NCBI GenBank assembly: GCA_005222975.1
Contig: NJBI01000038.1
Location: 1-34,132, forward strand
DNA: 34,132 bases
Source: Promethearchaeota archaeon Loki_b31
GTDB taxonomy: Archaea > Asgardarchaeota > Lokiarchaeia > Sigyniarchaeales > SOKP01
Direction: 5' to 3'
Shown here one piece after another: positions 495 to 30,169 of the stretch (its first letter is position 1; the number at the start of each line of letters is the position of its first letter). Position numbers and translations under genes: made by a program. The notes below the pieces were generated by a model. That model saw only the letters and a list, made by a program, of their open reading frames with translations. It was not told the origin of the DNA and searched no databases.

Positions 495-1646
495 ATGAAT
501 GGAATTTGGGATATAAAAGCCGACGCAGTAGAAAAGGGAGATAACCACAGAGATGTTTCACCCCTAACAGATAAAACTTGGAAAGATGATAATGGTTTTA
601 CTCATTACATTTTTAGTAAGACTGCTTTTAATAATCCTTGGTATTCGATTCAAGAAAATGATTTTGAACTTTTTGAAAATTTTATTGAAGGAGGGTCAAG
701 AGCTTATCCTTCCGATGGAAGTATCCCCTGTGATATTATAGCTGAAGAAGCTCGTAAAATTCTTAAGAAACTAGAAGAATGTTCAAATGATCCTAATCAC
801 CATTATTGTGAATTAGCCCGCGACTCGTTAAAACATGGAAAATTTTCTTTAGTTAGAGGTACATTGAAACTCTATTTAGGTAAGTATACTACGAGAGATT
901 GGAGAAGGAAAAGATTCACAGACGACATTGATTTTTGGATGTTTCAGATAATTTTATTGGATTCAACATTGAGAGATTGTAGCTTCATAAAAAATAAAAA
1001 TACAGGAGAATGGGAAAAAACAATTGAATGGAAAAATCCAATCACTAAAGAATTTAGGCGCGAAACATTATTTGCTGCAAATAACCTTAATCAATTACTT
1101 GATTTTGGGGCGGGGAGCTATCTTGAAGGGTCAAGCCTTAAGGAAATATTTGATAAAAAAATTAAAAGAGGTCATGATGTAGATTTGAGCGATATTATAA
1201 ATGTAGCAATGGTGAATAACGGAACCGACGGCTCTCATAAAGAAGAATGGTTAGAAGCATTGTCATCTTTTGAACAAGCAGCAAATACACGAAATATAAG
1301 AACTACATCTAATTTAATAAGTTTGTACCGCTATTCCTTTGCTATAGCGGATTATCTTAAAAGAGTTAGTGAAGCCATAAAGAGATACAATGATCTTATT
1401 TTTGATAAATCTAAATATCCTGATAAAACGTTAAAAAAGTTATGCAGATTTTCCAAACATTGGGTAAATTTTCTTAATATTAATGGACCAGAAGAAACAA
1501 GGAAGATACTTCACGAGTTTTACCTCGAGCAAGCAGAAGAAAAGCTAACACACGCAGAAAACCTAAAACTTTTTTCTAATAAGATACTAAAATTACTTAA
1601 TTCCAAATATGAATACCTTAAGGTAACATTTGATATTGAAACCTAA
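495..1646 (+). CDS. putative nucleotidyltransferase, AbiEii/MenT (DUF1814)-like, Pol-beta superfamily
   Basis: SLVRGTLKLYL...RRKRFTDDIDFW matches the hGG(T/S)...RxT/SxDxDF signature. EIFDKKIKRGHDVDLSDI resembles the C-terminal 'EK...R...DhxD' motif. Confidence 0.55.
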   Translation: MNGIWDIKADAVEKGDNHRDVSPLTDKTWKDDNGFTHYIFSKTAFNNPWYSIQENDFELFENFIEGGSRAYPSDGSIPCDIIAEEARKILKKLEECSNDPNHHYCELARDSLKHGKFSLVRGTLKLYLGKYTTRDWRRKRFTDDIDFWMFQIILLDSTLRDCSFIKNKNTGEWEKTIEWKNPITKEFRRETLFAANNLNQLLDFGAGSYLEGSSLKEIFDKKIKRGHDVDLSDIINVAMVNNGTDGSHKEEWLEALSSFEQAANTRNIRTTSNLISLYRYSFAIADYLKRVSEAIKRYNDLIFDKSKYPDKTLKKLCRFSKHWVNFLNINGPEETRKILHEFYLEQAEEKLTHAENLKLFSNKILKLLNSKYEYLKVTFDIET

Positions 1647-25883: not shown

Positions 25884-25989
25884 TGGTGGGCCCAGGGAGG
25901 TTTTCGTATAAGCGATAGATTCGCTCTGATATCGAACTCCCGATCTTCTCGGTGTAAGCGAGACGTCATAACCACTAAACCATGGGCCC
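25884..25989 (-). tRNA. tRNA-Val(TAC) with a 30-nt T-loop intron at 59/60 (25901-25930); CCA encoded
   Basis: GGGCCCA/TGGGCCC acceptor, TCTCG-CTTACAC-CGAGA anticodon arm, GGGAG/CTCCC T-stem. BHB is TTCG[AT^A]...CGAA[AA^C]; the mature tRNA is 76 nt. Confidence 0.93.
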
Positions 25990-27597: not shown

Positions 27598-27711
27598 CGC
27601 TCAGGGTGGGATTCGAACCCACGCATCCGATGGACACTGGATTAGCAATCCAGCGCTCTACCAGGCTAAGCGACGAACTTTCACTAGCACGAAGAGGCTA
27701 ATAAGCTGAGC
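27598..27711 (-). tRNA. tRNA-Ser(GCT) with a predicted 31-nt intron in the acceptor stem at 6/7 (27675-27705)
   Basis: The spliced form is GCTCAG^G TC GCTT AGCCTGGTAGAGC G CTGGA TTGCTAA TCCAG, then a long variable arm, GTGGG TTCGAAT CCCAC CCTGAGC G. It has a fully Watson-Crick acceptor stem and G73. tRNA identity is secure; the exact intron boundaries are inferred from BHB geometry. Confidence 0.85.
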
Positions 27712-27872
27712 TCCTTATAATCCCGAGCATAAATACAATTTTTTTAGGTGTGTTTCTTTTTTCATTATAACGATTTAAAATTTTAATACTTTTTCATTGG
27801 AATGAGCAGTTCATATTAAAGATAAATAAATGGATAAAAAAAAATAAAGTAGATTTTGTATTTTTAAACCTA

Positions 27873-29935: not shown

Positions 29936-30040
29936 GCACCTGTAGCCTAGTGGTAAGACGCTGGCCTTGAGTGTGCAATAGAAACTATCAAGTAAGCCAG
30001 TGCGCGTAAGCGCTCGGGGGTTCAAATCCCTCCAGGTGCG
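29936..30040 (+). tRNA. tRNA-Ser(TGA) with a canonical 37/38 intron of 23 nt (29972-29994)
   Basis: GCACCTG/CAGGTGC acceptor and G73; CTGGC/GCCAG anticodon stem; BHB CTTG[AG^T]...CAAG[TA^A]; long variable arm GCGC-GTAA-GCGC. Confidence 0.93.
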
Positions 30041-30065: not shown

Positions 30066-30169
30066 GGGCTATTAGCGCAGGCAGGTAGCGCATCCGGCTC
30101 TTAACCGGCAGGTCGGGGGTTCGATACTTCCATCCTTATCAGATGGAGGCGAAAGTCCCTCATAGCCCG
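30066..30169 (+). tRNA. tRNA-Lys(CTT) with a 30-nt T-loop intron at 59/60 (30126-30155)
   Basis: GGGCTAT/ATAGCCC acceptor, GCGC D-stem, CCGG-CTCTTAA-CCGG. BHB is TTCG[AT^A]CTTCCATC..GATGGAGG CGAA[AG^T]. Confidence 0.93.

Follow-up and report, generated by a model that had tools for sequence, protein, structure and literature searches.

An interrupted tRNA-Ser(GCU) gene and its intron

The window analyzed here, a 34,132-nt stretch of DNA from Promethearchaeota archaeon Loki_b31 (contig NJBI01000038.1; the source genome is designated G000, and other G numbers denote the genomes of related species), carries on its minus strand a tRNA-Ser(GCU) locus with an interrupted 5' part. In the direction of transcription, the locus begins with a spare acceptor strand, GCTCGGG (GCUCGGG in the RNA; 27728-27722), which pairs at 7 of 7 positions with the 3' acceptor strand. 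It is followed by a 10-nt spacer, ATTATAAGGA (27721-27712), and by exon 1, GCTCAG (GCUCAG; 27711-27706), which supplies tRNA nucleotides 1-6 and is invariant in nine species. A 31-nt intron at position 6/7 (27705-27675), supported by motif geometry and by compensatory changes in its inner helix, separates exon 1 from exon 2 (27674-27598). Exon 2 covers tRNA nucleotides 7-73 and contains the D arm, the anticodon arm (GCU), the long variable arm and the T arm, followed by the 3' acceptor strand CCTGAGC (CCUGAGC; 27605-27599) and the discriminator G73 (27598). The coordinates and letters that an earlier, sequence-only reading had given for the locus were all correct. All of the parts are collinear, span 131 nt and lie downstream of one promoter-like block; the locus has neither the separate transcripts of a split tRNA gene nor the rearranged exons of a permuted one.

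The GCU anticodon in a 7-nt loop, the long variable arm and G73 place the gene in the class II tRNA-Ser(GCU) group, as judged by Rfam alignment and ARAGORN. The Rfam tRNA model RF00005 matched the locus at 41.1 bits over model positions 7-64 only (27674-27605), and ARAGORN made zero tRNA calls on the unspliced genomic sequence of the window. After deletion of the 31 nt, ARAGORN recognized a tRNA-Ser(gct) of 83 nt, a canonical cloverleaf whose acceptor stem consists of seven Watson-Crick pairs. The 5' strand is uninterrupted in 47 related loci, 24 from the same genus and 23 from the neighbouring genus; those that share this acceptor read GCTCAGG directly, then TCGCTTAG, and their junction reads GCTCAGGTCGCTTAG. 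The restored cloverleaf and the GCTCAGG of the intact relatives bear out the proposed tRNA-Ser(GCU) with an intron at 6/7; with any other boundary, position 7 would be left unpaired. One of the relatives, G034, has an uninterrupted 5' strand and a T-loop intron, and its gene is 100% identical to exon 2 over the first 63 nt (G7 to the T loop).

The failure of ARAGORN and of the full Rfam model on the genomic sequence, together with an imperfect central helix in the splice motif (see below), could mean that the locus is a decaying pseudogene with fortuitous motif-like pairing. This we consider highly improbable. The interrupted locus is the sole Ser(GCU) match in a 92%-complete genome, nine species have identical or almost identical exons despite divergence in the intron loop and the leader, the intron helix carries compensatory changes, the promoter-like block is conserved, and many tRNA genes of G000 are interrupted. 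The locus is probably a working tRNA-Ser(GCU) gene of the Promethearchaeota with a 31-nt intron of the EndA type at 6/7, and its leader heptamer would act as a substitute on the 3' acceptor strand. For annotation, this means that an essential Ser(GCU) gene is missed by both ARAGORN and the full Rfam model.

The insert conforms to a bulge-helix-bulge motif of the relaxed kind, and the motif classifier of a preprint on Asgard tRNA introns (10.64898/2026.10.13.758758) would grade it 'relaxed' in G000. In the central helix (H), nucleotides 1-4 of exon 1 serve as the 5' strand and AAGU (27680-27677) as the 3' strand; with G1.U, C2-G, U3-A and C4.A, 3 of the 4 positions are paired in G000. A5, G6 and the first intron base make up the 5' bulge, and U27676, C27675 and G7 (27674) the 3' bulge, giving two bulges of 3 nt each on opposite strands (A5 G6|C and U C|G7). 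If each bulge is cut behind its second base, a rule that follows the canonical 37/38 geometry and the definition given in the same preprint, both ends have exactly the junction required. Within the intron, an 8-bp inner helix (h') joins 27704-27697 to 27688-27681; this helix and the central helix had been drawn correctly in the sequence-only reading. An H of at least 3 with an h' of at least 4 is reached by 0.27% of dinucleotide shuffles of the intron.

The outer helix (h) draws one of its strands from the leader. The last two bases (27713-27712) of the spacer, AUUAUAAGGA in RNA letters (27712..27721, minus strand), pair with C9 and U8, and in G000 the pairs A(-1)-U8 and G(-2)-C9 are followed by a bulged G10 and then by four further pairs. 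A helix TAAGGA/TC(G)CTTA had been proposed here; two contiguous pairs of it stand, but a 1-nt bulge precedes the other four, and as a conserved feature the 6-bp helix had to be given up, since it is confined to G000 and G150. The outer-helix pairs that recur are A(-1)-U8 (9/9 species) and G(-2)-C9 (7/9).

Splicing of the intron by EndA is predicted from these features. Two PF01974 matches in G000 score 97.7 and 70.5 bits; they lie in open reading frames of 200 and 202 amino acids (contigs C13:36116-36340 and C79:5005-5253), and such a pair of paralogues would be compatible with a two-subunit EndA of broad specificity.

The intron and the upstream heptamer occur together in nine species that belong to two genera within a single Promethearchaeota family (one genus with G000 and G017; the other with G150, G145, G144, G100, G148, G136 and G126), and the nine loci represent one intron gain, so that counts across them are non-independent and independence rests on the three tRNA families considered below. 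A pattern scan of 185,579 species genomes (one per prokaryotic species) returned eight archaeal loci that had already been found, chance bacterial matches and two non-tRNA archaeal matches, and no further lineage with the exact acceptor sequence. In the nine-species alignment (A1), the specified structure is paired in 87.8% of cells, a share that drops to 30-43% if the partners are shifted by 1-3 columns. Three pairs of the inner helix show compensatory changes on both sides. The central helix has 4 of 4 pairs in G136 and G126, 3 of 4 in G000, G017, G145 and G144, and 2 of 4 in G150, G100 and G148.

A different choice of the 5' exon has to be weighed against the 31-nt intron. The upstream heptamer could be the true exon, with a 48-nt intron (27722-27675), a mature tRNA that starts with GCUCGGG and has a G5.U68 pair, and the inner GCUCAG as an intronic structural mimic. 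ARAGORN likewise calls a tRNA-Ser(gct) after removal of the 48 nt, the heptamer is the thermodynamically favoured partner of the 3' strand, its conservation is compatible with an exon, and in genus g28 the heptamer is identical to nucleotides 1-7, so that either intron leaves the same product. With the 48-nt boundaries, however, the motif scores H 3/4, h' 0 and h 0, that is, the flanking helices are missing, in contrast to H 3/4, h' 8 and h 2 for the 31-nt model. The inner GCUCAG is constant in the nine species while its partner varies (AAGU, AAGG, AAGA, GAGU, GGGU), a pattern that is exon-like and unlike that of a structural strand. The changes in G017 strengthen the inner helix of the 31-nt model (U.G to C-G) and weaken the pairing of the 48-nt model. 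At tRNA-Ile (see below), the upstream copy varies (GGGGAAG, GGGAAAG, GGGAAUG, GGGAAGG) whereas the inner copy is the invariant GGGAGAG of the intron-less genes. The longer intron is therefore unlikely, and we retain GCTCAG, the 5' exon of the sequence-only reading, together with the 31-nt intron.

Ser(GCU) introns differ by species. An 18-nt D-loop insert is present in many g1 species (loci L027-L051), and a 30-nt T-loop insert in G034, G150, G100, G148 and G126 (loci L025, L132, L133, L135 and L136). These other introns are occasionally combined with the 6/7 intron.

The spare acceptor strand in the leader

Both GCTCGGG and GCTCAG can pair with CCTGAGC, as had been noticed from the letters of the locus, the upstream strand doing so through a G5.U68 wobble. 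The upstream heptamer lies 10 or 12 nt from exon 1; its sequence (GCUCRGG) is GCUCGGG in four of the species and GCUCAGG in the other five. It pairs with the 3' acceptor strand at 7 of 7 positions in all nine species (63 of 63 cells). Six of the seven heptamer columns are invariant, compared to 5 of 40 in the flanks (2 of 30 in the leader and 3 of 10 in the spacer; Fisher p 0.0003), and the single variable column is an A/G that faces U68, with which both bases pair. The sequence-only reading had named loss of the heptamer from intron-bearing relatives as one of the findings that would refute it; all nine have kept it. The base that precedes the heptamer is U eight times and C once, and could pair with G73 in 9/9 species; in G000 this base is U(-1) at 27729.

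A fully pairing heptamer was found at 0 of the 47 uninterrupted Ser(GCU) loci, scanned over ~60 to 100 nt upstream, and at 0 of 15 control tRNA genes of G000, scanned over 45-nt leaders. The chance expectation in G000 is 0.008 per 45-nt leader. Conservation well above the flanks, combined with a distribution linked to the intron, marks the spare strand as an element under selection that goes with the intron and has the capacity to pair with the 3' acceptor strand.

Farther upstream lies the promoter-like block. As the segment AATGAAAAAGTATTAAAATTTTAAAT (window positions 27771-27800, minus strand) it is near-invariant upstream of the Ser(GCU) genes of two genera, in ~40 related loci, in contrast to the leader that follows, in which changes are saturated. 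Its core, TATTAAAA (27781..27788, minus strand), within the block AAAGTATTAAAATTTT, was placed by conservation and spacing, and we infer a promoter role for this candidate from what is known of archaeal BRE/TATA elements. The block lies 52 nt upstream of the spare strand in G000, and the spare strand would therefore be within the transcript. Across loci, the spacing from the block to tRNA position +1 falls into discrete classes of about 50-52, 61-62 and 69-70 nt.

This spacing raises the question of whether the heptamer is a functionless footprint of the arrival of the intron, either a partial 5' duplication or the old 5' strand, that still pairs by chance. The heptamer is a near copy of nucleotides 1-7, it lies exactly 52 nt from the block in G000, where most intron-less relatives in the genus (13) have tRNA position +1, and at tRNA-Ile the upstream copy resembles nucleotides 1-13. 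The spacing argument fails in genus g28, the second of the two genera, though, where exon 1 is at +51 and the heptamer at +32, and the idea of an ancestral 5' strand left at the 52-nt position was set aside as not general. A footprint would also have to account for a heptamer that is conserved far above its flanks in two genera with a sole change that is neutral for pairing, and for a spare strand that recurs at three unrelated tRNA genes, always with a 5'-proximal intron. We therefore regard the footprint as improbable and treat the heptamer as a selected element in what follows. An origin of the intron itself from a duplicated 5' part of a tRNA was also dropped: the two share the 7-mer TTAGCCT and, by eye rather than by a formal test, ~50% identity in one register, which is within chance for 31 nt.

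Corresponding loci of tRNA-Ile and tRNA-Cys

The tRNA-Ile(GAU) gene of G000 (contig C92, about 600-720, minus strand; loci L055-L083 in the comparison) has a 30-nt intron at 7/8. Ten species carry this intron, accounting for 10 of the 27 loci that were scored in the genus. A heptamer lies 13-14 nt upstream of the invariant exon GGGAGAG and pairs with the 3' strand CUUUCCC, at 7 of 7 positions in seven of the intron-bearing loci and at 6 of 7 in the other three. Its G's opposite C are constant, and the sites opposite U vary between A, G and, once, U. At the intron-less Ile loci, a 7/7 heptamer was found in 0 of 17.

Two further observations concern the Ile locus. In G000, the leader mimics tRNA nucleotides 1-13 (GGGGAAG CGGCTT). 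In G009, the tRNA body and the 3' flank are 100% identical to those of G000, but the intron is absent and the 5' flank is unrelated, and it therefore seems likely that presence or absence of the Ile intron was swapped as a 5' cassette by recombination inside the tRNA body.

The tRNA-Cys(GCA) gene of G000 (contig C87, 100980-101100, plus strand; loci L208-L237) has a 31-nt intron at 10/11, and its central helix is built from nucleotides 5-8. Here the spare strand abuts the exon directly (GCCAGC|GCCAGCG), in 6/6 full-length intron-bearing loci from three genera. None of the ~24 loci lacking the 10/11 intron has the spare strand, including four that have a D-loop intron further 3'.

On the sequence comparisons made here, the three unrelated tRNA genes follow one rule: a spare strand accompanies the gene if, and only if, the splice motif overlaps the 5' strand of the acceptor stem. 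The tRNA-His gene (contig C99) was considered as a further case after a truncated Rfam match hinted at an acceptor-stem intron, and was rejected; its orthologues place the intron in the D loop and have a continuous 5' strand.

Folding and a model for maturation of the precursor

Calculated nearest-neighbour energies fit a switch. Before splicing, the heptamer-bound folds reach -38.6 to -40.7 kcal/mol, compared to -28.9 for the cloverleaf with exon 1. After splicing, the heptamer fold and the cloverleaf are near equal (-30.1 against -32.9, within 3 kcal/mol). The predicted competition of the heptamer for the 3' strand at this stage is a cost to the model, and tertiary contacts, which are absent from the folding model, should favour the true cloverleaf after splicing. 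In the folding ensembles of the nine species, the heptamer is paired to the 3' strand with P of at least 0.97, and upon its replacement exon 1 takes the 3' strand with P 0.2-0.99. Occupancy of the splice helix with the heptamer against none was 0.09 against 0.01 with the arms constrained and 0.10 against 0.42 in unconstrained folding of G000; since the two set-ups disagree, we did not count this measure as evidence either way. Of the earlier suggestion that the decoy frees exon 1, the capture of the 3' strand by the heptamer holds up in the folding models, and a higher occupancy of the splice helix is not robust.

The central helix uses tRNA nucleotides 1-4 and the outer helix uses the leader and nucleotides 8-9; the acceptor stem is therefore absent from the splicing-competent fold. 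The same bases are needed for the splice motif and for the acceptor stem, a conflict that the conserved extra strand would resolve. In the precursor, the heptamer would pair with 27605-27599, leaving nucleotides 1-4 free for the central helix and nucleotides 8-9 for the spacer, and would thereby keep exon 1 from being trapped by the 3' acceptor strand. After the EndA cuts, the leader and the 6-nt micro-exon would stay on the tRNA body via the heptamer helix, and ligation would close a 7-nt loop (nucleotides 1-7) on the outer helix, with a geometry like that of the anticodon loop in canonical splicing. The ligated nucleotides 1-7 would then displace the heptamer, and RNase P would take off the 17-nt leader. 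We infer these modes of action, that is, the freeing of exon 1, the tethering of the micro-exon and RNase P cleavage after splicing, from the arrangement of the locus. If they hold, the elements known to take part in pre-tRNA processing would include one more, a cis-acting leader element; splicing and 5' maturation would be predicted to follow a fixed, obligatory order; and the Asgard introns that lie a few bases from the tRNA 5' end would be explained.

Current thinking holds that an archaeal tRNA intron survives only where the tRNA sequence around it can build the motif for the endonuclease. A broader form of the model would make the leader spare strand an obligatory cis helper for every EndA intron whose motif uses acceptor-stem bases (~3/4 to 12/13), standing in for nucleotides 1-7 on the 3' strand and tethering the micro-exon, with splicing first and RNase P second; our own judgment on this generalization is evenly balanced. 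If true, the maturation of archaeal tRNAs would obey a general rule that has yet to be described, one that also limits the sites at which introns can be gained.

Non-canonical tRNA introns, including 3/4 introns in Thermoproteales, have been published (PMC4090602), and 6/7 is not named among the intron positions in the portion of that article available to us, where the lists end in 'etc.'. The Ser(GCU) intron resembles them in being short, in lying off 37/38, and in having a predicted EndA cut, by an enzyme that may be of the two-subunit type, and a motif in which flanking helices and two bulges of 3 nt surround a central helix of 4 bp. It differs from them in that 6/7 is the most 5' site allowing the whole central helix to be made from mature tRNA bases, in that the outer helix comes from the leader, and in that a conserved copy of the acceptor strand accompanies the intron. 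Our literature searches found no published description of a leader copy of the acceptor strand. In the split tRNA genes of Nanoarchaeum equitans and Caldivirga (PMC4090602, PMC4033280), sequence that is not part of the mature tRNA likewise pairs, holds the exons and presents a relaxed motif. Unlike those genes, the present locus would use a single transcript, and its helper mimics nucleotides 1-7 on the 3' strand of its own tRNA rather than being the flank of another RNA; the helper here has to give way at a later stage and be taken off, presumably through RNase P cleavage.

There is also a likeness to bacterial pre-tRNAs in which the leader pairs with the 3' end: in both cases the leader meets the 3' side of the acceptor stem, here with a U/C(-1) that can pair with G73 in 9/9 species. 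Extension of the acceptor stem by the leader is reported to inhibit formation of the catalytic RNase P complex (PMC9433436). The bacterial case has no intron and its leader extends the true stem, whereas here the 5' strand is replaced. By analogy with this bacterial result, and assuming that it has some relevance to archaeal RNase P, we speculate that RNase P may be impeded at the surrogate stem by the -1:73 pair.

The tRNA genes of Asgard archaea are reported to be heavily interrupted (PMC11291895; preprint 10.64898/2026.10.13.758758). According to the preprint, most tRNA genes of Asgard archaea are interrupted, and the route and the limits of intron gain are open; the word 'leader' occurs 0 times in it, and introns are evaluated only in the context of the spliced gene. 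In G000 (3.5 Mb), only 22 places score at or above the threshold of the Rfam tRNA model, and several of these matches are truncated; most tRNA genes of this genome are evidently interrupted beyond recognition by standard tools. The window has three tRNA genes besides the Ser gene, at 29936-30040 (plus strand), 30066-30137 (plus strand) and 25933-25989 (minus strand). In one of them (Rfam 46.6 bits), 26 nt are inserted at the position of the anticodon loop, and the other two apparently carry T-loop inserts, with weak or truncated Rfam matches.
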